DNA of 63,979 bases, the filler included, from Dugesia japonica (Eukaryota): the NCBI GenBank assembly GCA_001938525.1. It is 7 parts of 7 records of this genome, joined end to end, with 100 filler letters (N's around TTAATTAATTAA, not from the genome) between each part and the next. Parts side by side here need not be neighbours in the genome. Positions count along the whole stretch, not along the records: positions 9,419 to 18,928 come from MQRL01295054.1; 6 more parts are not named here. One strand, 5' to 3'. Position 1 is the first letter of the stretch, and every line of letters starts with the position of its first letter. The notes below the pieces were generated by a model that saw nothing but the letters and a program-made list of their open reading frames with translations, made no database searches and had not been told where the DNA came from. Made by a program: the position numbers and the translations under genes. Positions 5,985 through 63,955 of the stretch are shown one piece after another.

Positions 5985-6960
5985 GGTGTCAGGACGAAAT
6001 TACACGGGTAAAAATTACACAGGAAAAAATTACGCAGAGAAAAAATTACACAAAAAAGTTAAATTATAAATTTATTAAATTTACTTATTAACATAAAATT
6101 ATAAAAAATTTAAAATTATAAAACAAAAAAAATTACACGTATCAGGACTACATGGAAATAATTCCTCAAGCACAACCACGAAAAATCTTGACAGATTTTG
6201 AAACTGCAGCAATGAAAGCCTTTTGTACTGTATTTGAAAATATCGAAGTTGGTGNATGGTTTTTCATCTATCCCAATCCATTCTCCGTAGAGTGTGGATT
6301 GAAAACTTTGTATGAATCTAATCAGTCTTTTGCTATACATACAAAAATGTTGTTATCCCTTGCTTTGTTACCAGAAGAAGTCGTGGAGTCATTTTTAGAA
6401 GTTTCTGAACTATTTTCTGATGTAAATGAATATAATGAACAAATTGACCAAATTCTCTCCTATTTTGAGCTTACATATATAAGAGGTAGGCAACTTAGAA
6501 ACGGAACTTACAAACAACCATTGTTTAATATTTCAATTTGGAACCATAAGGAATCAGCAGCAAACTGCATAGCACGAACTACAAATTGTACAGAAGGATG
6601 GCACTTCGGACTTCAGTCACTTTTTCACTGTTCCAATCCAACAATTTGGAAATTTCTGAATAACATCATAACATACAATCTATTTACAGCATTAAACTGG
6701 TCAAAAAAACCACGGAAGTATTCGTTACACAAACTTAAAACAACGTATTTCAAGGATTGTACAAAATTTTGTCTCTAATAGACGACACGAGTTCTTGTGG
6801 TCTATAGCTCATATTACTTAACTTTTAATATTTGATAATAAATTTAAAATTTAAATTTTATTAATTTATTAACTTTTTAAACTTTTTTTCTTAGTGTNAT
6901 TTCATCTCTGTGTAATTTTTTCCTGTGTAATTTTTACCCGTGTAATTTCATCATGTAACC
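5985..6960 (+). mobile_element. Internally deleted Mutator-like (MULE, Phantom-type) DNA transposon with sub-repeated TIRs
   Basis: Left end ggtgtcaggacgaaattacacgggtaaaaattacacaggaaaaaattac is the inverse of right end gtaattttttcctgtgtaatttttacccgtgtaatttcatcatgtaacc. The TIRs consist of tandem aaattacac units. No clean TSD seen. Confidence 0.85.
6152..6778 (+). pseudogene. MULE transposase, C-terminal half
   Basis: ILTDFETAAMKAF..VF (DFE motif), a damaged GCxFH site, YFELTYI, LFNISIWN, and RTTNCTEGWH (RTNNxxEGWH catalytic Glu motif). Confidence 0.85.
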
Positions 6961-9318: not shown

Positions 9319-9362
9319 NNNNNNNNNNNNNNNNNNNNNNNNNNNNNNNNNNNNNNNNNNNN

Positions 9363-10276: not shown

Positions 10277-10314
<38 letters not shown>

Positions 10315-10317
<3 letters not shown>

Positions 10318-10488
10318 TGGGGTTTCACTAGAGTCGGGTGTAGAAAAATATGACTAGTGGAAAAGACAGCACTCAGGGGACCCGTCATAATATTAACCTA
10401 ATATCACTATTTAGGTTTTCGATGTGAAGCGGTTGACTTACATCACTTATTCGGAGAACACACTCGCACATCTTTCTATTCGGGTTCA
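10315..10488 (-). repeat. Conserved ~175-bp terminal module (putative short LTR), copy 1
   Basis: TGAACCCGAAT...CCCCAACA on the minus strand. Includes the perfect hairpin aacctaaata-gtga-tatttaggtt. Confidence 0.7.
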
Positions 10489-10579
10489 ATATTTCACCAC
10501 TGTTTTAATTCAACAAACGTAAAACAAAGGTAATAAGGACTTGTAAAAAAGTTTTATTTTACACAAATCCACATGTAAT

Positions 10580-10903
10580 TTAACGCCTCAGGGTCAAGTC
10601 ACTGGGCTGTCTCCCCATTCGCAAAATTGAAGGCGGTCTCATCATAATCACTGTTACACTGTACCCATGTATCAAGTTCAAGGTGGGTGGATACGTCGGC
10701 GATGGATTTCTGCAAAAACTCAATTTTATTTGCAAGGATTTGCTTTGTGCATTCAGCCAATTCTCCTTGTCTTTTACAATTATATCTAATTTATTGATCA
10801 ATAAATAGCATTCATTACTTTTAGCGTAGTGTCGTTCCGGTAATAGTTTCTGGATAAATCTATGACAGCGTCGCATGCTACTAGGAAGACGTATTCTGAC
10901 CAC
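10580..10903 (-). CDS. Hypothetical cargo protein (ORF-C), 107 aa
   Basis: Open frame starting directly at the acceptor-like site cttttctatttag|TG. No known motif. Confidence 0.4.
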   Translation of the reverse strand: MVRIRLPSSMRRCHRFIQKLLPERHYAKSNECYLLINKLDIIVKDKENWLNAQSKSLQIKLSFCRNPSPTYPPTLNLIHGYSVTVIMMRPPSILRMGRQPSDLTLRR

Positions 10904-11041
10904 TAAATAGAAAAGATCATTATCTTTTAATTTCCATTCTAGTGTGAGTAATGATTAAGTTAAACAGAGTAATCCACAAAGAAAAGAAAATATCACTAAT
11001 AGACTTCAATGCACAACAAATTTATTGCACATAAATCAAAA

Positions 11042-11407
11042 TTAATTTCGAGAATGAGAGGTCTGAGTTGCCTTATCAATCATAAGGTGCTCTAGAGGCA
11101 TGCGTTTACGCATCTTAACAAAATCAGTGACCAGTTTTTTTTTATGGTCATAGAGGGACCGGATAATATCTGCAAAAGACTCTAATTGGCGTTTCCAAAC
11201 GCGCTCCTGAGTATGGGAGGCCTTTGCTTCGAGCCTGTAATTGTAACATTTATTCTGATAATGCTTCACTTTGGCATTAACTCCAGCCGTCTCCACCTCC
11301 CACTTTCTTTTCGCTAACTTATTTAGATCCCAGGACATATCTACGTTTTTACTGTCTTCACGGACTTATTTAGCAGGAGCAAACGACCGATTGAGTGAGG
11401 AATGCAC
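11042..11407 (-). CDS. Hypothetical basic helical cargo protein (ORF-B) with C-terminal DKATQT
   Basis: ORF 11042-11338. The frame extends through one TAA to the acceptor-like site tttcttttag|TG at 11407. Confidence 0.5.
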
Positions 11408-11559
11408 TAAAAGAAATTATAATGGTTAATGGCTTAACAAGCACTGTGAATGAACTAGCTCTTAGGAGATGACACAATTAAGGGCATTAAACTTGATTAT
11501 TAACAATTCGGGATTCGGAGTTCTTAGAAAACAAAAAAAAATAATATCAACAACAAGGC

Positions 11560-11861
11560 TCTAATTCAACATTCTCACAGTTCTCACGGCTCTCTGGTTC
11601 TCTAGCTGGCCAAAATAAGTTGTTGATGGTCGCAAATACTCCAGGGTGAGCTGGGGGGTTCCCATATGAAAACTGAGTTACCAAGTTCTGTGAGAGAATG
11701 TGTCAGGAATGATAATTACGCCATTCAACAAAATCTGTATCCTTTCTACTGTCGCATCTACTAACGGTAAATTAATACAATCGATTAACACACCTGCGTC
11801 CCTATTATATGGGTTGTGGTGTCGTCTGACGTCCCAAAATTCGTTCCCATTGATTATCCAC
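11560..11861 (-). pseudogene. Degenerate homologue of ORF-A (HNPxNRDAG family)
   Basis: Manual translation across frameshifts: DNQWERILGR..HNPYNRDAGVLIDCINLPLVDATVERIQ/DFVEWRNYHS*HILSQNLVTQFSY../ATINNLFWPAREP. Collinear with 31219-31540. Confidence 0.8.
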
Positions 11862-12573
11862 TAAAAATAAAATGAACTTTAAACCAGAACGCGTAAAATT
11901 TCAAAATCAAGATTTTTAACAAAATATTGGTTTGGTGAATCAATAACGAAATATTGCACGGAAACAAATATAAAAGTCATTTTAGTATAATTTTGTGGTT
12001 TTAGACTATTAAATTAATTTGAGTGAACGATAATAAGTAATGATAATTGTGTTTCTGTGTAAAAAGAAACAGAAATGAATTAAAGATTTCTCGAAAATTA
12101 ATTGCATATTAAAGAAACAGTCATTAATAAAGTATGAAGAATATAGAAGCCAATTGGAAAACAATTATGAAAAATTCTAAATTAATTGCAATCAGAAAGA
12201 GCAAATTATAACGATGAATAAATCGTTGAAAGTTAGAAGGTATTTAGAAAGAAGTAATGAATAAAGTGTGAATTAAAAATACTGAAATTAAATGCAAGTA
12301 GCAAAGAGTAAATTGTGACTTTGAAATGGTAATGAATACTTATTACAGATTTGATCCAGGTTGACAAACAACAATGACTTAAATTACTAAAAGCAGAAAG
12401 CACTTTGTATGGACTAGATTAATGCCTAGTTGAGCTATCAAAACTAAATATATTTTCACTCTGGTTCTTTCTTTCGAATTTTTATAGAATTTTTAAATTT
12501 TGTTTTGATTTTTTTATTATTTTCTAATTTTTTTTTTAAAAGTATTATGATTTTACACGTCTAAATAGTAGCA

Positions 12574-15866: not shown

Positions 15867-16613
15867 GTAACACAGCAGATGGATTTATTTTCCAGTTAAA
15901 ATAATCAGTTAAAAATAATAAAACAGTACTCAAAACTAGACAAACTAATGAAATATGGAGTGCCAATCAATCGAAATTAAGTGTACTGTACCAATAAAAG
16001 TAGAGGATACTAAAATAATTTGACAAATAAAAATGGCAGACCGCCAGGGGTAATGGTCATTTCCTTCACTGTTGTATTATCTCTATACTCATATTTTATT
16101 TTTTAATTACAAAAAATAACAAAGAGAAAAAGAAAGTTAAGTAGGTTTAGTAACTTTTCTTTAAGAATGAAATATATATAAAATATATATAACTAGATTT
16201 TTTGTTTGATATATTTTATATTTTAACAAACAAGTCACTGAAATATAAATAAATTCGTTCTACAACAATTTTTACCAATTGTTGTAATTGTTGTGCAAAG
16301 AGTACTTTAATAAAATCACTTTTAAATAATTTTAATATTTAAGTTATTTTTAAATATAATTAATAAGCACAATTAAAAAATTTACAACACCAATTAATTT
16401 CTAAACAAAANNNNNNNNNNNNNNNNNNNNNNNNNNNNNNNNNNNNNNNNNNNNNNNNNNNNNNNNNNNNNNNNNNNNNNNNNNAAAAATTAATTTTTCT
16501 GTTTTTTAAAATTAGTTAATAAGAGAATTTTGATTTATTAGACAAAAAAACACAATTAATAATACTAGAAATATATTGAAATATGACAAAAATACTTAAA
16601 ACTAAATAATATT

Positions 16614-16930
16614 TGTTGGATGTAATCATTGATCGTTTATTAGAACTGATTAGAATAAAAGCTTCGGTCAATTTTCTTTTAAAAAGTCAATTCATGGCGA
16701 AGAAAAGATTGAAAATTCTAATTATTATCAAAAACAAAAAAAATTTTGATCGAAGCTTTTATTTTTATTTTAATGCATTCTGAAAAACAATCAATGGTTA
16801 CTGCCAAAAACTATGATATTCTCCAATAATTGCCATTGTTAAACAATTCTTTTTTGTTTTTGTTATAATTTCCAATTTTCAACTAAATCTTCGTCAGGAA
16901 TTGACTTTTTTGATTTATTCAAGATTTATA
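16614..16930. repeat. Penelope-associated palindromic repeat / pseudo-LTR with degenerate hammerhead
   Basis: Inverted arms gtaatcattgatcg..aaagcttcggtcaa / ttgatcgaagcttt..aatcaatggttac. Minus-strand aattcCTGACGAagatttagttGAAA at 16902-16867 lies just 3' of the GIY-YIG frame. Confidence 0.65.
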
Positions 16931-16974: not shown

Positions 16975-17232
16975 TTAAAGTTTAATTATTTTATTAATAT
17001 AAATTGCAGTGATTATAAAATTATCTTCTTTAATTACTGATTCTTCATGTTTTTTCTTATGAAGTTTAGAAATGTAGCCTGTTCCTAGAGTTTTCAATGT
17101 TATGTGATGTTGTTTTGTTGAAATTTTATGTTTGTGTTGAAAGTGTTTGAAGACTTCACTTTCTGTTTTTTTGAAATCATCTTTAATTCGTGTTCGGATG
17201 ATTCTGCATGTTTCACCTATACATGTTTCTGA
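16975..17232 (-). pseudogene. Penelope-like element GIY-YIG endonuclease remnant
   Basis: ETCIGETCRIIRTRIKDD...SEVFKHFQHKH...KKKHEESVIKE follows the PLE pattern YIGETxRxLxxRxKEH...SxVxxH...H...RKxxExxxI. Confidence 0.75.
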
Positions 17233-17239
17233 CGAAGAC

Positions 17240-17696
17240 AGTAGATAGATACTAGCGCACTGGAATAGTACTTCCCCACCGCCAACTATTTTCGACCTTA
17301 TGATTGTTTTAGTGTTTCTGAATTGCACCATTTTGATTAGTCATTACGTATATATGAATTAACTTTTGACTTTGGGTTGAAATGGTCGATATAATTAATT
17401 ATTATATAATTAAGTTTGAAAATTCAAATATTGGGTTCAAATTTTTAAAATATTTTTATACTATTCAACTAAAAATAGAAAGTTACATTTTTTTATGAGA
17501 ATATATGGTTGAGGAAATAATATATAATCATATAATTAATTATAAATTATAATTAATTTGTGCTACTAGCTGCCCTTCCTTTTCTTTCATATATGCGCGA
17601 TGACCATTACCACAACTTTTAGCACAGGTGATCTGTTCTCACAATGAGTGAGGCTCGATAACTAATAGTGAACCAGTGCGCTCACATCTACTTACT
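17240..17696. mobile_element. ~460-bp mini-element with AGTAG-type TIRs
   Basis: Left agtagatagatactagcgcactgg; right (reverse complement) agtaagtagatgtgagcgcactgg. No TSD evident. Confidence 0.6.
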
Positions 17697-18395
17697 AAAT
17701 AGTAACAAATTAATTCAAAATTTTCCATACTTAAAAAATTTGCTATTATGATTTTAATTTATCCATAAAAATTTTAAGTTTATTTTCAAAATTGACTTTA
17801 GAAATTTATTCAAAACATAATTCACTTTACCCACAAAAGAATAGTTTTAATTAAATTAATCAATCCATCATACTTAATTTATTTAATAAATTATATAATT
17901 TATTTTCAATAAATGTTTAGAATTAATTTGAATGAATGAATTTAATAATAAAAAACTCATTGTATAAATTAAACTTTAATCAGAATTTTACGATAAAAAT
18001 AAAACAATTTATTAAAAAATGCACAAAATCTAATTTAATTTTCAAAATTTTAAGTAAAATATCGAACAGATAAAATAATTAAATATTACAAAGGAAAATA
18101 TCACCTGTGTAAATAAACTAGAGATGACTTTTGTTGTTTCCTTTGAGAATTATTTGATTTACATTGAAATTCATAAAAATTGTTAACAGAATGGAGATAA
18201 ATTGTTCTTCATTGCAAGACCACTTTCCGTATAAAACGTTGTTCACCAATGAAAATACTATAAGAGTATCGACACAAATTATTAAGACATTTAAAATTAT
18301 TTTTTTCTTGGTTTTTAATTTTTGCAAAATTTATTTTTAATGGAATTGAGTAATTATATATTGATCATACCATAATTATACCAGTAATTATACTA

Positions 18396-18597
18396 TTGAT
18401 CGTATTTCAGAATTCATTTAAAATAAATAAAAACTTTAATCAAAATTTTGTTTTTTTTGTTTTTGAATTTTGTTTATTGAACAATTCAATATTTCAGGAA
18501 TTCACTTCCTGAAGAAGACAAAGTTAAAATATTGAATTGTTATCAGAAACCAAAAAAAACAAAATTTTGATCGAGGCTTTTATTTATTTTAAATGAA
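18396..18597. repeat. Palindromic repeat with hammerhead-like core (same family as 16614 and 56390)
   Basis: Arms ttcatttaaaataaataaaa..atcaaaattttg / caaaattttgat..ttttatttattttaaatgaa. Centre caggaa-ttcac-ttcCTGAAGAagacaaagttaaaatattgaatt. Confidence 0.7.
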
Positions 18598-19028
18598 AAT
18601 ATGCTTAAGTCACATTATACAAATAAATTATTCATACTCTAAATATTAAAATATAAAAATATGCTTTAATATATATTTTAAATTATATCAAACATATTTT
18701 GATAATATCAATTTTTAAAAGAAATGCGTACAATACAATTGACTAATTTTNNNNNNNNNNNNNNNNNNNNNNNNNNNNNNNNNNNNNNNNNNNNNNNNNN
18801 NNNNNNNNNNNNNNNNNNNNNNNNNNNNNNNNNNNNNNNNNNNNNNNNNNNNNNNNNNNNNNNNNNNNNNNNNNNNNNNNNNNNNNNNNNNNNNNTATAA
18901 CATGTTATAGATAATATATAATAAATTANNNNNNNNNNNNNNNNNNNNNNNNNNNNNNNNNNNNNNNNNNNNTTAATTAATTAANNNNNNNNNNNNNNNN
19001 NNNNNNNNNNNNNNNNNNNNNNNNNNNN

Positions 19029-19426
19029 AAGATAGTTTTCAGAATATAAGAATTTTGTTTGATATTTGTGGAACCTTTCTAGCGTCGAGTGATAATTGTG
19101 AAAGAGGCTTTAGTATGATGAATTTGGCAATGACAAAATTTAGAAACAGATTTGACGTAAATCAGTTGAGTAACTTAATAAAAATAAAGTCACACTTAAT
19201 GTCCAAAAATGTTATTGACTTGGATAAAGCATACCATTACTGGAAGCACGCCAAATACAGGCGAGGAAAAAATAATCATTTAATTAATTTAAATATGTAT
19301 AATATTGAAAGAAAAAAGATTTTCCACTAATAAAATACATAATTTACGTAATTTTGGTTTAATATTTTAATCATGGCACAATTTATTTTTTTTCCTGCTC
19401 AGCTAAAGAAATTAGAGGGAACGTTG
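19029..19426 (+). mobile_element. hAT transposon 3' end (dimerisation domain plus right TIR)
   Basis: DICGTFLASSDNCERGFSMMNLAMTKFRNRF..QLSNLIKI is the hAT C-terminal motif. The terminus aaattagagggaacgttg reads caacgttccctctaattt on the other strand, an hAT-type TIR. Confidence 0.85.
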
Positions 19427-52233: not shown

Positions 52234-53108
52234 TTAAGATTTAAAATATTTAGATTTATATTTTTTATAAATCTTGTTAGATAATAAACCTTGAGATTTT
52301 AATTTTTTACATATACTTTTGATTTCTTTAGATAAATTATTATGTCCAGATTTTGCTGCTGAAATTAATAATGTTAAATTTTCAAATAATGCAATTGGAT
52401 TTGTTTTTGCCTTTATGTGTTGTGCCTTTATGGTTTTTGTTCCTTTTCCTTCCTTTTCTGTTACATATTCTGATTCTGATTCTGGTTCTGGTTTAGATGT
52501 AGTAGTAGTAGTTTTCTTTTTTCTTTTAGGTCTAACATCAATATCTACTTTTCTAAATTTATTTTTTAATTTATTAACATAATCACAATTAGTTGGAATA
52601 GGGGAAATAAATTTTAAATAAACCTCAATATCTTCAGGTGTTTCTGTGTTATCTTTATTTCCTAAAATTAATCTAAATATTCCGTCAGTGTATGGTATAA
52701 TTTCAGATTTAAAAAAGAAATATCTATTATCGAGTTCTGAGAATAAATAAATTTTATTTTCTTTTAAAGTTATTTCCATAAAACTTTTTATTTTATCAAT
52801 TCCAGCAATATCTAATCTTGAAAATTTAGGAATAATTGTTTGAGTTAATTTTCTAGCTGCGTTGACATTATCAATTGATATTTCAGGATTAAATGGAATT
52901 ACTTTTTCATTTAAAAAGAATTTTGTTATATCTTTAGTTTCTAATGATTTNNNAAATTGACTATTTTGTAATGCATTTATTGTTGGTTGTTGTAAAATTG
53001 ATAAGTTAGTTTGTAAATTATTATAATCAAGAACTTTACTACAAAAAAGTTATTATAATTTTCTTGAGCATTAATTAATTTTTTTAATTCTTCAATTCTA
53101 GCATCCAT
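52234..53108 (-). CDS. Conserved Polinton protein of unknown function (frameshift near 53045)
   Basis: C-terminal NPIALFENLTLLISAAKSGHNNLSKEIKSICKKL resembles the DPNELxxRLxLL..S..AGN...NEI motif common in Polintons. It has a GKG site, and the frame extends upstream to MDARIEELKKLI at 53108. Confidence 0.7.
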
Positions 53109-53217
53109 TTTCGTTTTTATATATCTTTCTTTATAGATTTTTTTGACTTTCTTTCTTTATGGATTTTTCTTCCTTTCTTCCTTTCTTCCTTTATGGATTT
53201 TATGTATTTTTCTTATT

Positions 53218-53789
53218 TTATGGTTCTTCTTCAGTTTCAGTTTCAGTTTCATCATCTTCATCATCATCATCTTCATCTTCAATTGTACCACCTTTATTTA
53301 CACTATAAGGATTTAAATAAATACCTTTTCCTTTGTGAATTATTTTGAGTCGTTTTTTAAATTTTTTTGTTACATCTTTCATGTTAGGATTTATATATTT
53401 TAAATATTTATGAATTGCTGAACCTTGATATGGATTTAAATATATTCCTTGTCCTGTATTTAATTGTGGAGCAGTTGGAGCAGTTGTTTGTGCACTTTGT
53501 AATTTTTAAGTTCATTTTGTTTCTGTAATTCAACTAACTCAGTTTCTTTTTGTTTTTTAATAGCATCTCTAGATTCTGTAACAGTTTTTGCAATTCCAGC
53601 GGCTAATCCAGATGTAGTTGCTAATCCAGCAATAATAGCCGGAATTGCTGNNNNNNNNNNNNNNNNNNNNNNNNNNNNNNNNNNNNNNNNNNNNNNNNNN
53701 NNNNNNNNNNNNNNNNNNNNNNNNNNNNNNNNNNNNNNNNNNNNNNNNNNNNNNNNNNNNNNNNNNNNNNNNNNNNNNNNNNNATTCAT
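53218..53789 (-). CDS. Virion core/membrane-lytic-like protein with GxGIYLNPY repeats and acidic tail (frameshift ~53505, gap inside)
   Basis: AIPAIIAGLATTSGLAAGIAKTV amphipathic segment. Adding one A in an A-run gives ...TGQGIYLNPY...KGKGIYLNPY...NKGGTIEDEDDDDEDDETETETEEEP*. Confidence 0.7.
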
Positions 53790-53807
53790 CTCTGTCTTTT
53801 TTATATA

Positions 53808-55649
53808 TTAACAATTTAAAACTTTATTTATTAAATCTAATCTTAAATGCCACATGTTACATTTTACACATTTACATTGATTTCCATGAGGCCAAGTTCT
53901 AGTTGCATTATCTTCTATGATTCTTTTATCACTAAATGCTGTTAATGCTATTTTCTTTTGACTTATAAATTTAATTTCATGACAATCAGATTTTAATGAA
54001 TAATTTGTTCCATAAATTATTTTCTTTGGATTTTCTAAAACACTGTCGAATTCTTCCATTCCAATTTTATTGAAAGATTGAACACCTTTATGTTTTTTAT
54101 TTAATCCTATTTTACCTGTGTGGGTCGCTGTGCTTGCTTTGTGGGTTTCGTTAGTCTCTTTATTGTTATTTTTATATTCATAAGCATAAGATTTTGGTTT
54201 TATAAAATCACATTTAAGTATTTCAGAATCTGGCATTTCATCTTTCATCTGAAATAAATCATTTCCAGTTAAACTATTTAATTTTTCAATGTTATCATTT
54301 CCTGTAATTTCTACAAATACGGAATCGGTATCGCTGTAATGAATTTTATAATTTTCTTGTCCAACTGCTGGTTCTAATTGGTTATATACAAAATTGTACA
54401 TTACTTCTTTCGCGTATTCAAGAATTGTAAAACCTAAATATGGAAATTTATTATAATTTAAATTTGTTTTCATTAAATGAACTGCTCCAATGAAAGATTC
54501 AATTCCTGAATCTAATTTGAAACTTTTACAACTTAAATATGTTAGTTTAGATGTAAGATTTTGATAATCTTTATCAGTTCCTACAATTCGCACGTTACAT
54601 CTATTTCTAATATTTTCAAGTGTCTTACCATAAAATGAATTATTCATATCTTTAAAGAAAGATACGCCAAATTCATCTTTATTGCTTTTTGCTATATTTC
54701 TTTGAGAAATATTGAAATCTATATAATCTTTTAACCATGTAGATGTTGGCATTTTATATTTTACATCTATCTTTTTTAATAGCATTCCTAATTGTAAATA
54801 GAGATCTAATGTTGAACCTAGGATTATATAATTTTTCTTGTCAAATTGATTCATTGTAAGTTTAATATTTTTATTTGATAAATTTTTATTAAATGATTTT
54901 TGATAATTACTTAACATGTCATTTGTAATAAGTAATCTGTCAGGTGCTAGTGGAAAATATTTAGTTCTATCATGTAATTCTGGTGGATAATCAAGATCAA
55001 CTTCATATAAATAATTCATTTCTGGAGTTGAGATTTCATAAATTAAATCTTCGCATTCGGTGAATTCACCTGTAGGTAGTGGTTTTGTCATACATGATGC
55101 ATATAAAGAATTTGCATCAAGATATTTTATATAAGCATCTTTAAAATAATAATCTGGAATTTCTTCTCCTGAATTCATAATTTTTATGAGATCTTCAAAC
55201 TGTGCATTATTTATTCGTCTGTAAGGTTCTGAATAATTATAGCTAAAAACTTGACGTTCACCTTCTTCACCTGAATATTCACCTCTAACTCCACGTTCAA
55301 ATTTTAGAAATGTATCATAAGTTTCTGATTTTGCAAATTTAAGTTTTACTTGTGTATATCTCATTCCAGGTTGCCATGTTAAACCTGATGCTATAAAACA
55401 ATAACTTGGATCTATGTTATAAAAGTTTAAACATATCTTTCTAAAATTTTCTACGTAATCTGCTAAAATTAAAACATCTAATTTCATATAGTGTAACATG
55501 TAATTCCAAAGATTTTTAAAGTTAGTTAGATCATTTAAAAATTCTTGATATTCTTCGTCAGATATTCCTTTTTGTCTTAGTTTACTAAAGAAATCATCTT
55601 TTCCTGGTATTTGGTTGGATTTTAATAATTCTTTAACTTCTTTGATATT
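53808..55649 (-). CDS. Protein-primed DNA polymerase B (Polinton), 5'-truncated at contig end
   Basis: DVLILADYVENFR (ExoIII region), YLDANSLY, KDMNNSFYGK, YSDTDS, KSYAY, KHKGV, KIALTAFSDKR. The frame stays open upstream of 55499 (IPGKDDFFSKL...ISDEEY). Confidence 0.95.
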   Translation of the reverse strand, partial: NIKEVKELLKSNQIPGKDDFFSKLRQKGISDEEYQEFLNDLTNFKNLWNYMLHYMKLDVLILADYVENFRKICLNFYNIDPSYCFIASGLTWQPGMRYTQVKLKFAKSETYDTFLKFERGVRGEYSGEEGERQVFSYNYSEPYRRINNAQFEDLIKIMNSGEEIPDYYFKDAYIKYLDANSLYASCMTKPLPTGEFTECEDLIYEISTPEMNYLYEVDLDYPPELHDRTKYFPLAPDRLLITNDMLSNYQKSFNKNLSNKNIKLTMNQFDKKNYIILGSTLDLYLQLGMLLKKIDVKYKMPTSTWLKDYIDFNISQRNIAKSNKDEFGVSFFKDMNNSFYGKTLENIRNRCNVRIVGTDKDYQNLTSKLTYLSCKSFKLDSGIESFIGAVHLMKTNLNYNKFPYLGFTILEYAKEVMYNFVYNQLEPAVGQENYKIHYSDTDSVFVEITGNDNIEKLNSLTGNDLFQMKDEMPDSEILKCDFIKPKSYAYEYKNNNKETNETHKASTATHTGKIGLNKKHKGVQSFNKIGMEEFDSVLENPKKIIYGTNYSLKSDCHEIKFISQKKIALTAFSDKRIIEDNATRTWPHGNQCKCVKCNMWHLRLDLINKVLNC

Positions 55650-55930
55650 ANNNNNNNNNNNNNNNNNNNNNNNNNNNNNNNNNNNNNNNNNNNNTTAATT
55701 AATTAANNNNNNNNNNNNNNNNNNNNNNNNNNNNNNNNNNNNNNNNNNNNACTATTAAATTATGTTATTTTAAGTGAAATTTAAATCATAATATATTTTT
55801 CACTTACAAATTCTGTTTTTTTTTTAAATAGCTAGTAAGATTATAATCAATTATAGGGTAACGGAAAATTATTAACGGATAATTGTAGAAGCTAATTTTG
55901 ATTAGAAAATTAAGCGAGTATCGTGTGAAC

Positions 55931-56137: not shown

Positions 56138-56389
56138 CAACTATAAATTTTTTGATATTATTGTACAGAGAATTAAAAACTGTCTATGCATTGTCCATAG
56201 GACTAGTATCGATTTATTTTGTTTAAATGCCGCAATTTTTCAAAACAATTTGTGAGCTCATTATATGCGTAAAGCATGTATATGGCATGCGTATGTCATA
56301 TTTTATGCATGTATATAACATGCATATAGCATGAGTAATAAACATTTTGTTCAAGATATAAGAATTTTACAATTGCAATTATTGCGAGA

Positions 56390-56591
56390 ATAATTGTTGG
56401 GCGTAATCATTGATCGTTTTTTAGAATTCATTTAAAATAAAAGCTTCGATCAACATTTTTTTTTGTTTTTTGAGATTGATTCGATATTTTGACTTTGTCT
56501 AAGTCAGGAATTGACTGACGAAGACAACGTCGAAAAATCGAAATATTATCAAAAACAAAAAACATTTGATCGAAGCTTTTATTTTAATGAA
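56390..56591. repeat. Palindromic repeat carrying two back-to-back hammerhead-like motifs
   Basis: Arms ttcatttaaaataaaagcttcgatcaa / ttgatcgaagcttttattttaatgaa. Confidence 0.75.
56515..56544 (+). ncRNA. Minimal Penelope-type hammerhead ribozyme motif (probably inactive copy)
   Basis: CTGACGA-A-GAC-aac-GTC-GAAA-aa-TC. Mirror copy on the minus strand: aattc-CTGACtt-agac-aaa-gtc-aAAA-ta-TC-gaatc. Confidence 0.6.
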
Positions 56592-58628: not shown

Positions 58629-58817
58629 TATAAGAAAAAAGCTATTAATTAATATTTTTAGCCAATAGAAAGTGAGTAAATTCGATAATAAGTTTTAATC
58701 AGTTCTTTTCATTATAATTATTTCCAAATAGCAGAGTTGTAGTAGTAAAATAAATGATGTCTCAAAATATTAATTATGATTTGGAAAATGAATTAACAAT
58801 CGAAGGTTTACCTAGCA
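58629..58817 (+). repeat. 5' LTR
   Basis: Matches 62716-62905 with scattered substitutions and ends in CA before the PBS. Confidence 0.9.
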
Positions 58818-59755
58818 TGGTGGAAACGGTAAATACCGATTCTATTACACAGAGGTTATTGCCGAAAATATTCTGCAGAGGAGATGATATTGAGAAATTT
58901 CTCAAGCACTGTGAATTGTGTTTTGAAGCTAAAAACATCACACATGTGAAACAACAGTAGAAATTAGTCTCTTGTTGGTTAGATGAAGATTTGTTGGAAG
59001 AATATGTAAAGAAGTTGAAAAAAAATTGAATTTTTTCATGCTAGTTTACGATTTGAGAATGAGAAAAATATAATCAAAGATTTTCCAAATTTTATTAACT
59101 ACAGACGTGAAAATGAAAAGATTCAAGTTTATTTTAAAAATGTAAAAGATTTAGTAAAAAGATTATTTACATACAAAAATTTTACTGAGGAAAGAATGGT
59201 AACAAATATGCTAGGATATTGTTCAGATAACAAAAAAGTTGAAGAAGAAGTGACTTTGCGGATACGACAAAATATAGAAAAATTTGTAAAAACAATGACG
59301 TTAGTAGATAAAGTAGAGAAAAACAGAAATCAAGTTTATGCAGTTAGAAGTTACGCAAGAGTTACAAGTCGAAATTTTCAGAAAACCATAAATCATACAG
59401 TGAATAGATATGTGAATCAAAGAAAAGAAAAACAAAATATCGAATGTTTGTTATGTCATAAGATCGGTCGTACTAAAGCAAAAGTGGTAGTCCAACTAAA
59501 TAAAATGGTAGCCTGCTGGCGTTGTCATAAAACAGGACATATAAGTCGAGATTGTCCAAATAAAAAACCAACAAAATGTTTTGGCTGTGGAAAGGTTAGC
59601 CATATTAGAAGGTGTGAAGTGGAAACGATGTGGTAATGGTGAACATAGGACAGAGGACTGCTACACAAATTTTAAAATGAAAAGAACAAGTGAGAAATGT
59701 ATGAATTCAGAAAGATCAAGAAACGGATATAATCGAGTACACGCGATTGAAGATT
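58754..59755 (+). pseudogene. gag: Gypsy gag with multiple CCHC knuckles
   Basis: GDDIEKFL, CWRCHKTGHISRDC, CFGCGKVSH, CGNGEHRTEDC; broken by stops and frameshifts. Confidence 0.85.
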
Positions 59756-59868
59756 AAAATGTCAATAAAAACGATGGATTTGAAGTGAAAGTGATTCTGA
59801 AAGACAGTACTTAAAAATCAGGACTCTATCCTTAGTTGGTTTGAGCCATCAATTATTAAATGAAGTGA

Positions 59869-62700
59869 TTGATTTATCTTCAAGGGGTCGATATATGGGA
59901 AGATATCGGAAACGTTTCAGAAAAAGTATACAGGTTTTTAAATTGGAAAAATTTTGCAGATGATAGAAAAGTAGAATGGGTTGGAACAATTGAAACAGAA
60001 AAGAAAACAAATATTTCGTACCATAAATTGGAAGGCAGACCAAGTGTTACGATGTCAATTCAAGGAAATAAAGTTGAATATCTATTAGACACAGGGGTTG
60101 GAGTTTGAGTTGTTTTAATAAATTTCGAGAAGTAAAATTAGAAATGATTGATGAAAGATTGCGTTGTGCAAATAATAGTACACTTGAAATTGTTGGAAAA
60201 TTTAGAACTGGAGTGATAATTGTTGAAGTTTGCAAAGAGATTACTTTCTTAGTAATTACTTAATTAGAGATTACTTTCTGGATACTAACTTATGCGATAG
60301 GTTGATAGCAAAACGGATGAAAATGTTGAAAATTACATTTGCAATATTGAAACGAAATTTGGAAGACAAATGGGATGTTAGACGCACTCATCTGACAAAT
60401 CACAAAAAAAAACAATCAATGTAAAACCGTAAAGGTAACCAATGAACTTAGAATATAAAATTGAAGAAGCTATCCAAAACCTTTTCGAGAATAATATTAT
60501 CCGGAAATACAACTCTCCATTGATTTGTGTTTGGAAAAAAGGAAAAGAAGGACATAATAAATATACTTAGATTTTAGACAATTGAATGCAGTAACGGGTA
60601 GACAAGCCTTTTTGATGCTTATATCAATGAAATAATGAACAAGTTAGATGGAGAAAAATATTCAAGTTCAATAGATTTAAGAAATGAGTACTATCAAGTA
60701 AACCTTGAAGAAGAATCTCAAGAAAGAACAGAATTTTCAACTAAGCATGGTCAATATTGTTTTAAAAGAATGCCATTTGGCATCGAAGAGGCTCCAGGGA
60801 CATTTCAAGAGATGATGACAGAAGTAGTAAGCGGAATCAATAGAGCCCTGATTAATCTTGATGACATCTTGATATTTATGAACAAGTAATTGAAAATGTA
60901 TTGTCGGAAATAATGAAGGCTGCTCTAAGAATTAATTGAGAAAAGTGTTAGTTTCTTCAAAGCAAAATCAAATTCCTTTGGACACATAATTAGCAGACAG
61001 AACTGATCCGTCTATAATAGAAGCAATAAGAATGCTTGGCAAGTCTAAATGTGTGAAGACGTTATGAGGTTTCTTAGAAATTTGTAATTATTACAAAAGG
61101 TTTATGGAAAATTATTCAAGAAAAGTTTAGAACAGTTGAGTAGTAGACCAAGCAACGAGAAATTAGAAAAGACAGATGAAATAAACAATACTTTTGATGG
61201 TCTGGAGAAAACCGTGTGACTGCAACAATATTGTGTTTTTCAGACATAAATAAAGAATTAATATTAGATACACATGCCAGTTTTGATACGATTAGAGCAG
61301 TATTGTCACAAAGAGATAAGGAAGGAAGAGAAAGAGTTGTTACCTATGGATCACACTCAATGACGAGTCATGAAAATGGATATTGCATCACACGAAAGGA
61401 ATTATTGGCTGTGTATTATTTCTGCATGCACTTCAAACACCATTTGTACGGTAGAAGATTTACTCTTAGAACAGATCATAAAGCTCTAACTTTCATGATG
61501 ACTACGAAGAAACCAATTACATTGCAATTTCAGACATGGATTAATCATCTGAGTAGTCTAGACATGGTTTTGGAATATAGAAAAGGAATTCAACATGCTA
61601 ATGCAGATATGTTATCTAGACCAAGATGTGAGGTATGTGAACAATGTCAAATGTTACATGAAAATGCCAAGAAAGGGAAGATTAAAACGAGAATTTTGAA
61701 CATAATTGAAAAGAAAAAAGAAGAGCATTTAAAAATTTCTGAGGAAACAGACTTGATCAATAAAATGAAAATTTTGGATGACAAAATACATGAGATAATA
61801 GAAGAAATACATAAGTTATTATGTCATGCAGGAGTTGAGAAGCTGTGTGAATATTTGAGAAACTAATACATTGCGAAGAATTTGTGGAGTCAAATATAGA
61901 AGATAGTTCGTAGTCATGAAATTTGTCTGAAGATCAAAGTAGTGACGACAGCAACTAAAAAGAAGACAAAGACATTAGAAGCTACCAATTTGTTTGAAGT
62001 CATATTTACAGATATTTGTTGGCAAATGCGTGAAACAAGTGGACGAAAAAAATACATTCTTGGAATAATCGACCAGTACAGTAAATATCTGGTTTTTATA
62101 GACGAGACAAGACGAGGAAAAAATACAAAAAGCTATTTTTGAAAAGTGGATATTGAGATTTAAATTTCCAAGAGAAATAAGACTCGATTGTGGAAAAGCT
62201 TTGGAATCCAGAGTTATGAGAGAGTTTGCACTGAAGTTAGATATTAAACTTTGTTTTTCGAGTCACTATCACCATAATGCAAATGGAAAAATTGAAAGAC
62301 AGTTCAGGACAATTTGAGATTTGGTTAATGCAACACCTCAGGAAAGAAAGACAACAGATTGGGCAGACCTTTTACCAGAAATAGAATTTACAATGAACGC
62401 AACAAAGCAGAAGACGACTGCAAAGAGCCCAGCTGAGATCATATTTTGAAAAACGATTAGCAGAGAAAAATGGTATGAGTCAGACGTTTCAGATAAAACC
62501 AAAAAAAACACTTCAAATGGGAATACAAATAGAGAATTCAAAGTGGGCGATTTTGTACTCAAGATAGAAACAAAAAATAAAAGTCAAGACAGATTTGAAG
62601 GACATTATCGAATAATTGATAGAATTTAACGAAAGGCGGTATGCGTTACAATGAGAAAATGGACAGCGATTAGAAAGAAATGTGGAAAAACTTAGAAGTT
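59869..62700 (+). pseudogene. pol: Gypsy pol (protease, RT, RNase H, integrase)
   Basis: LLDTG; IDLRNEYYQV, RMPFG, NLDD (from YLDD); LDTHAS, TDHKAL, NADMLSR; HKLLCHAG, IIDQYSKY, YHHNANGKIERQFRTI. Confidence 0.93.
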
Positions 62701-62715
62701 TATTAAGAAGGAGGA

Positions 62716-62905
62716 TATAAGGAAATAATTATTATTTAATATTTTTAGCCAATAGAAAGTGAGTTAATTCGGTAATAAGTTTCAATAAGTTCTTTTGAAT
62801 TATAATTATTTCCAAATAGCAGAGTTGTAGTAGTAAAATAAATGATGTCTCAAAATATTAGTTTTGATTTGGAAAATGAATTACCAATTGAAGATATACT
62901 TAACA
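62716..62905 (+). repeat. 3' LTR
   Basis: Follows the PPT and is a direct repeat of 58629-58817. Confidence 0.9.
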
Positions 62906-63289: not shown

Positions 63290-63955
63290 GTACCGGAAAA
63301 NGAATAGTACTTGCATTTAATTGTTGTATCTAATAATGGAATCAATTAAAGTTCTACAGCTATAGTCACATGGTTTACTAAACTACTATCTTTTTCTGGT
63401 ACAAGAGCAATCTTAATATCTGCATATATTACGAAAGACGGTGTTATTATTTTTTCATAATTTTTGAATTTCAATTCTTTTTCCTCACGCATTTTATATA
63501 AGGTTGTCTTCTCTGTATTTGATCTACATAGAGATACATGACGATCAATTGTGGAATGAGTCTTGAAATCATGTAAGGGCTTGATACGACATTTTCTTCT
63601 AATTTTAATTTTCAGTGTTCGATCATCTAGATTCAGTAATTGATCCAAATTTACAACTGCAGTATAATGAAAGTCTTGTTGATTTTCCAAAACAAGTAAA
63701 ATTATATGGCGTCCATTTGGGTGTTTTGTTCTGAAAATGATATCCACATATGGATTTTTGCATAAAATTTCATTTCCTTCTTTATCAATAGTTATATTAT
63801 ATTTAAACACTGTTATTTATAAATTATTTTTCTTCTCACATTCTGGAATGTTGATGAGCTTCATCAGCATCTTCTACTTATCATATACTAATTCATTTCG
63901 GAAACTGTTATATTTTTGCGGTTGATATGGGTTATTCGTAACGATATCATATTTA
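63290..63955 (-). pseudogene. Polinton pPolB N-terminal/exonuclease-I region, degraded
   Basis: EKKNNL*ITVFKY, HIILLVL....HYTAV.NLDQLL, a damaged zinc finger, and LKFKNYEK...PSFVIYADI (FKNY..PFVxYADFE). Confidence 0.8.

Follow-up and report, generated by a model that had tools for sequence, protein, structure and literature searches.

Two GC-rich islands on separate contigs of the Dugesia japonica window (the whole stretch of DNA analysed, 63,979 nucleotides in length) represent a genuine and old family of mobile elements that encodes an unnamed protein, and they are probably the tail end of a retroelement of LTR type. On balance we favour the reading in which both pieces are the 3' end of such an element, carrying a soluble, non-env accessory ORF. 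The first-pass annotation had suggested an accessory-gene cassette terminating an element of LTR or unclassified type: an accessory ORF in this position fits the evidence, whereas the proposed rearrangement of the cassette is unsupported and the LTR assignment is unproven.

The window has a G+C content of 25%, and its contigs are joined by N44-TTAATTAATTAA-N44 linkers (positions 9319, 18929, 29040 and 37428). Copy 1 (10315..11861) and copy 2 (30889-31964) are real homologues, far beyond chance, with DNA alignments of 427 nt (62% identical, E 1e-29) and 120 nt (67% identical). Both are islands of 1.2-1.6 kb with a fixed 3' end and without a left end, and both are now broken: copy 2 by two in-frame stops, copy 1 by two frame breaks and two internal stops. 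The features of the two copies are as follows.

10277..10314, no strand: copy 1 outer flank, a (CA)n(TA)n microsatellite directly adjoining the CA end
10315..10488, minus strand: terminal module of copy 1, TGAACCCG...CCCCAACA (174 bp), a candidate for a short 3' LTR (or a TIR)
10421..10472, minus strand: copy 1 stem, 11 bp with one bulge, arms 10472-10461 and 10431-10421
10554..10748, minus strand: block C of copy 1, matching the C-terminal portion of the copy 2 A-C frame at 45% identity over 56 aa
10739..10954, minus strand: copy 1 pre-C open frame, 72 codons, entering block C in another frame
11042..11338, minus strand: ORF B, intact, 98 aa from Met, copy 1 only
11547..11858, minus strand: copy 1 ORF A remnant, with peptide homology to copy 2
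30889..31110, plus strand: copy 2 frame upstream of ORF A (the "B" of the first-pass annotation), 73 aa, Met start
31219..31722, plus strand: copy 2 A-C frame, Met-started and 167 codons long, interrupted by in-frame stops at 31519 and 31633
31778..31789, plus strand: copy 2 purine tract, 11/12 purines, directly before the TG of the module, candidate polypurine tract
31790..31964, plus strand: terminal module of copy 2 (175 bp), whose stem has its arms at 31805-31816 and 31845-31855
31964..33126, plus strand: copy 2 target, a decayed Maverick/Polinton-type PolB outside the element (PF03175)

In both copies the ORFs are oriented in sense towards the module and stop approximately 65-70 nt before it. 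The left edge of copy 1 is placed by a change point in GC content at 11849 (11832-11903). Its ORF A has frame breaks near 11830 and 11735, a stop at 11705 and a final stop at 11549, and its block C has an internal stop at 10601 and a final stop at 10556. The pre-C frame is perhaps the N-terminal part of block C itself; no convincing homologue of it was obtained in the searches run. ORF B is basic (net charge +11), with an AATAAA 16 nt after its stop. In copy 2 the first 100 codons of the A-C frame are open, and an in-frame 12-bp tandem repeat of 3.9 copies (31445-31491, plus strand) lengthens a Pro/Ala/Thr linker that is also Pro-rich in copy 1 and in the outside relative P0003 (discussed below). 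The 73-aa frame at 30889..31110 may belong to the element, judging by its GC content. Further upstream of copy 2, beyond a (TTA)n run, lies a GC-raised, stop-ridden stretch (29850-30440) with no match in the window, which may be either a further portion of the element or a separate repeat.

The peptides quoted for the two copies in the first-pass annotation are present where it placed them. Comparison of copies 1 and 2 by tblastn and tblastx yields blocks of 31 aa (61% identical), 24 aa (46%), 26 aa (46%) and 56 aa (45%), and the DNA score of the ORF A region (z 12.3) is reached by none of 200 surrogates. The excess of third-position differences reported earlier is borne out by the mismatches, which number 50, 37 and 85 at the first, second and third positions of 132 codons (p=2e-5 by chi-square). 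The 128 scored codons have a pN of 0.32 and a saturated pS of 0.83, giving a pN/pS of 0.39 (bootstrap 0.30-0.50); a dN/dS near 1 had been named as grounds for rejection, and the ratio is far below that value. A pN/pS this low occurs in none of 3000 column shuffles and is also seen in the two blocks recovered by frame-blind blastn. Block by block, the proposed frame gives 0.33-0.44 and the other two sense frames 0.67-1.87; one antisense frame, which mirrors the third positions, gives 0.42-0.72. The A-C protein has thus clearly been under purifying selection in the past. As synonymous sites are saturated, the two copies are old subfamilies, and the 70% identity of the terminal module is itself a sign of constraint.

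The order of genes was originally described as A-B-C in copy 1 versus B-A in copy 2. This difference finds no support, because A and C of copy 2 form a single frame (31219-31722), and C is therefore present in copy 2, and because the sharing of ORF B is not significant. When B of copy 1 was compared with the region upstream of A in copy 2, the DNA score was no better than background (z=-0.3) and the best single-frame comparison gave p=0.11. A frameshift-aware score was reached by 71/1000 nulls and 43/736 window tiles at the lower penalty and by 221/1000 nulls and 155/736 tiles at the higher; the positive control of this test scored 133 against a null maximum of 43. By eye, the upstream frame and B have a few short motifs in common, significant in no test. 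What does distinguish the copies is that copy 1 has approximately 830 additional bp separating A from C. This stretch contains the intact 98-aa ORF B and the 72-codon frame entering C. Two open frames of 107 and at least 72 codons are found in 0.3% of 3000 surrogates. Paralogy of B with A is unproven (P0003 versus B reached by 7/500 nulls, among 8 comparisons), as is a relationship between the pre-C frame and the copy 2 upstream region (6/500 nulls, among the same 8). A profile of A run against 1754 window ORFs returned A itself and one other at E 9.9. The sequence KWEVE within ORF B (11295-11320, minus strand) is also found at the start of P0003, with a nominal p of approximately 0.016 that is not significant after several tests.

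Outside the window the protein is almost without relatives. A HMMER scan of 1,835,955,588 representatives with the open 100-aa part of copy 2 returned two matches, of which one, P0003 (E 9e-8), is the sole outside homologue in that set: an unnamed protein of 94 aa on a 512-nt contig, 35% identical to the copy 2 ORF over 99 columns, from Met to Met, and with NP.NRDAG and N.P in common with both copies. P0003 being a true relative, the family exists beyond the two loci, although it is almost absent from protein sets. The other match, P0002 (a stick-insect hypothetical protein, E 7e-14), was rejected, its score being summed over 13 stretches of a repeat protein, and L001 (Propionicimonas, 22 residues) was set aside as chance, being one of 69 pattern matches and lying off-frame inside an unrelated long ORF. 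Word searches returned nothing for the A-C read-through among proteins of 91-293 aa, nothing for ORF B among proteins of 58-188 aa, and P0003 alone for the A profile among proteins of 17-175 aa; beyond these lengths A alone was compared, in the HMMER scan.

Pfam matches no gag, pol, env or transposase family in the ORFs, in agreement with the first-pass annotation, and ORF A, which a match to a known TE or host domain would have reclassified, has no match in Pfam or among PDB sequences. Searches of NCBIfam, PHROGs, PDB sequences, phages and plasmids returned nothing meaningful. In the Atlas there was no usable match for P0003, and B was placed in unnamed clusters only, at 0.91, recognition being below the reliable level. 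The structure model of protein A is poor (pLDDT 50), with no Foldseek match at E<=0.001 and a best Z of 3.6; ORF B is predicted to form two long helices (pLDDT 77, pTM 0.37). Neither a zinc knuckle nor a capsid is matched by the proteins. There is no transmembrane-like segment in the 8 pieces examined (highest 19-residue hydropathy 0.73), which together with the lack of a Pfam match argues against env. The N-terminal hairpin of A has what we take to be a WW-like look, and NRDAG/NRDxG, situated near the N-terminus, presumably only resembles a GIY-YIG tail; Pfam supports neither at E<=10. No remnant of RT, RNase H or integrase was found beside either of these truncated copies in 98 open stretches (a chosen subset of 130 listed, plus others) or by tblastn with the frames of the window's Gypsy element.

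The terminal module, also noted in the first pass, is shared on different contigs with 126/179 columns identical (z=27.5, reached by 0/200 shuffles). Identity jumps at its TG, from 37/74 columns in the preceding AT-rich spacer to 70% inside, compared with 39% at the third codon positions of block C. Its outer edge is an insertion junction. In copy 2, PolB homology begins at 31964, at most a base or two from the CA end (CCCCAACA): PolB 31964..33126 aligns to 55442-54236 with 62% identity over 1247 nt (E 2e-77), starting from residue 69 of the other PolB. Since PolB resumes mid-gene at this CA end, this is a true junction and the element a mobile one; to the left of copy 2, its contig does not contain the upstream portion of the PolB gene that was interrupted. 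The corresponding CA end of copy 1 adjoins the (CA)n(TA)n run. The bases flanking the outer end are CACA and GAAA. In both copies this end, CCCAACA, fits YNYAACA, which is reported as the 3' integrase-site consensus of animal Gypsy-type and retroviral LTRs (PMC3601003); by itself the motif is common, with 221 sites in 127,959 nt.

At the inner edge the signals are mixed. The inner end, TGAACCC in both copies, agrees with the 5' attachment consensus TGTTRNR in its TG only, and the true LTR start could lie elsewhere. AATAAA is not conserved in the module: copy 2 has one ATTAAA (at position 10) and copy 1 has none. A tract like the one preceding the TG in copy 2 occurs at 13/6612 TG sites in the window, by a criterion chosen after copy 2 had been seen; the copy 1 tract is unremarkable (8/12 purines, with 8 or more at 1461/6612 TG sites). 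An 11-bp stem is present in both copies, with five variable pairs and none broken (two compensatory and three G-U-type changes). A helix of this length arises in 3/600 class-preserving shuffles, and the best helix of the opposite strand is 8 bp, with no compensatory change. The folding energy of the whole module is not exceptional (z -1.35 in sense, -1.97 in antisense), and a shuffle of the stem pairs (120/500) is uninformative with two sequences. No ribozyme or tRNA was found in the element (no hammerhead core, no Rfam match at gathering score). Neither contig contains a second copy of the module, direct or inverted, and a 5' repeat is missing from the 2 kb upstream of copy 2 and from the 7 kb upstream of copy 1.

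The LTR reading gains support from the PolB insertion junction, the YNYAACA end, the copy 2 purine tract and the conserved stem. The length of the module is within the range of short animal LTRs, given as 159-551 bp in the families described in PMC5408684 and approximately 198 bp for the ta-TRIM account in PMC4558846; the repeats of the window's Gypsy element are approximately 190 bp. Against it, the left end is absent in both copies, a loss that LTR integration does not itself produce. We have not filed the family as a member of the LTR class, because two LTR features are wanting and none of the defining ones (paired LTRs, RT, integrase, a 4-6-bp target-site duplication) is seen in the window.

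Under the LTR reading, a single retroelement lineage would have split into two subfamilies, now deeply diverged, and the pieces would be the 3' end of each; the 175-bp module would be either an entire short 3' LTR or the outer, conserved portion of a longer LTR. The CCCAACA end would be an attachment site recognised by a DDE integrase, the purine tract before the module would prime plus-strand synthesis, and the stem may act at the RNA level. A small soluble A-C (approximately 170 aa in copy 2) would be encoded in sense just upstream, in the usual env/ORF3 position, and one subfamily would also have carried the basic, putatively helical ORF B. With RT and integrase supplied by the missing upstream part or by a helper element, the element would be copied through RNA and then inserted by integrase, A-C (and B) serving as accessory proteins from its 3' part. 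The purine tract and the stem suggest the RNA route; the position of the ORFs and the absence of enzyme or membrane features suggest the accessory role. We tentatively raise the possibility, itself rather doubtful, that these proteins are non-enzymatic helpers of the element's cycle that bind RNA or protein (for packaging, export or anti-silencing) and are not an envelope.

Several features of the module would also suit a TIR, in which case the element would be an integrase-type DNA transposon, Ginger-like or otherwise, seen at its right end, and A, B and C would be its passenger genes or exons. Read inwards, the outer end is TGTTG in both copies and fits TGTNR; Ginger TIRs span 40-270 bp in the account of PMC2836005; a TIR needs neither an inner TG motif nor an AATAAA; and copy 1 adjoins a TA-rich repeat, RTATAY being the preference described there for Ginger2. 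This origin is nonetheless unlikely, since the flanks are CACA and GAAA and not CCGG, CCGT or TATA (the copy 1 target is maskable by microsatellite slippage), no zinc-finger, DDE, OTU or Ulp1 match was obtained, and a purine tract with TG at the inner edge and a strand-biased stem point to RNA. An inverted second repeat and a DDE transposase are absent from the window, in which both copies are truncated. Short copies with a fixed 3' end and no left end, one of them in a microsatellite, recall a 5'-truncated Penelope-like or other target-primed retroelement, of which the module would be the pseudo-LTR or structured 3' end; the Naiads, as described in PMC8557442, are 5'-truncated, favour (TA)n and are without hammerheads. 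Such an element is expected to end in an RT tail or a GIY-YIG nuclease, but the ORF here has its own Met and matches neither. With no hammerhead core or Rfam match at gathering score, no tandem or inverted partial copies in the contigs and a clean YNYAACA end, we consider this somewhat less probable again.

That the pieces are a short non-autonomous LTR element whose sole gene is a highly diverged gag-like protein (TR-GAG-like) is improbable. At approximately 170 aa the protein is short for a Gag, zinc knuckle and capsid matches are absent, and the 2 kb before copy 2 and the 7 kb before copy 1 contain no 5' repeat; on the other hand, a single ORF does stand directly before the TG..CA repeat in copy 2, and PMC4558846 mentions a flatworm element whose putative Gag resembles no outside sequence. 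A fragment of a small DNA virus, or a satellite associated with Mavericks that has small genes and a terminal sequence of its own, is very improbable: the proteins bear no similarity to the window's Maverick genes and have no viral fold match at E<=0.001 (from a poor model), copy 1 lies away from Maverick DNA, and the position of copy 2 inside a Maverick PolB gene is one target in a repeat-rich genome, hence weak evidence. In its favour, the layout of copy 1 is reminiscent of consecutive short genes that bear AATAAA signals and are separated by AT-rich spacers, and frames like these are rare (0.3% of 3000 surrogates). Least probable of all, and put forward as speculation, is a new class of small integrase-dependent satellite without a pol of its own, in which a structured 175-nt end, a core A-C and variable extra genes borrow the integrase of a Maverick/Polinton or Gypsy element, maybe with a preference for Mavericks; A would then be a host- or helper-interaction protein of a new family, and the whole an animal counterpart of virus-parasitising satellites.

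For the preferred reading, the 3' end of an LTR-type retroelement with an accessory ORF, the cargo is new and the architecture is familiar, known systems having been compared by concept and description and not by sequence. Additional ORFs in the interval from pol to the 3' LTR are well known from the literature (PMC5408684, PMC11963269, PMC6431247). As described in PMC5408684, the bdelloid elements Vesta and Juno likewise have short TG..CA LTRs (159-551 bp) and a family-specific ORF of approximately 200 aa between pol and the 3' LTR, the content of which varies by family; the ORF3s reported there are GDSL, DEDDy or transmembrane proteins, whereas A-C has no Pfam match or transmembrane segment and gag-pol is not seen here. 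The Retand plant Gypsy elements, in the description of PMC11963269, resemble the present family in having conserved proteins of unknown function, thought to be regulatory, and tandem repeats in the region from pol to the 3' LTR, but they are plant elements with antisense ORFs and long internal regions, and the ORFs here are in sense to the presumed 3' LTR. The giant Gypsy-like Burro elements of planarians (PMC6431247) are alike, by description, in their accessory ORFs, which are separate or within the polyprotein; they exceed 30 kb and are described with known domains (MATH, BIR, ankyrin, env), none of which was matched here. Ginger1 and Ginger2, as presented in PMC2836005, have a similar TGTNR terminus and a terminal repeat of similar length, but also inverted repeats of their own, a DDE transposase and CCGG/CCGT or RTATAY targets, none of which is shown here. 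The ta-TRIM elements of taeniid cestodes (PMC4558846) have a comparable TG..CA LTR of approximately 198 bp with a polypurine tract just upstream; their interior is described as non-coding with both LTRs within 1 kb, while here one repeat accompanies a selected protein. A TRIM, taken as a non-coding interior between two close LTRs, is thus not what is found, the interior being under purifying selection on the protein. Troyka, with CG..CG ends in the account of PMC12440569, does not fit.

If the pieces are the end of an LTR element, an unnamed protein family conserved past synonymous saturation joins the accessory genes of animal retroelements. The module and the NP.NRDAG motif provide a marker for locating the parent element, which helps repeat annotation and the question of what extra ORFs do and changes no model; a parent without RT and dependent on Mavericks would be a new kind of satellite.

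The window is rich in mobile DNA, with a Gypsy element (zf-CCHC, RT, RNase H and rve matches at 59-62 kb) and a Maverick/Polinton-type region. The decayed Gypsy element (58629-62905, plus strand) has direct repeats of approximately 190 bp that are 90% identical, with a purine tract before the second; the terminal module is unrelated to these repeats. The Maverick/Polinton-type element (46595-55650, minus strand) encodes PolB (PF03175, E 1e-8), an adenovirus-type protease in two tandem pieces (50565-51464) and long unannotated ORFs of 585, 347, 271, 224 and 198 aa. Because the PolB at 31964-33126 (plus strand) is decayed and just 62% identical to this one, at least two Maverick-type families are present. 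A small intronless TBP-like ORF (37101-37427, minus strand; PF00352, E 8e-10) lies at a contig edge and is possibly carried by a virus-like element. By eye, and without a Pfam match in any case, we take a 121-aa frame (16975-17340, minus strand) to resemble a degenerate Penelope-type GIY-YIG nuclease, 6122-6778 and 18977-19330 (both plus strand) to resemble MULE-type and hAT C-terminal transposase pieces, and a 156-aa frame (63346-63816, minus strand) to resemble the region upstream of Maverick PolB. Dispersed non-coding repeats, 69-80% identical, pair 33127-33411 with 43669-44055 and 17707-18078 with 45646-46046, and a further family with the same range of identity comprises 16608-16843, 18395-18597 and 56357-56588.
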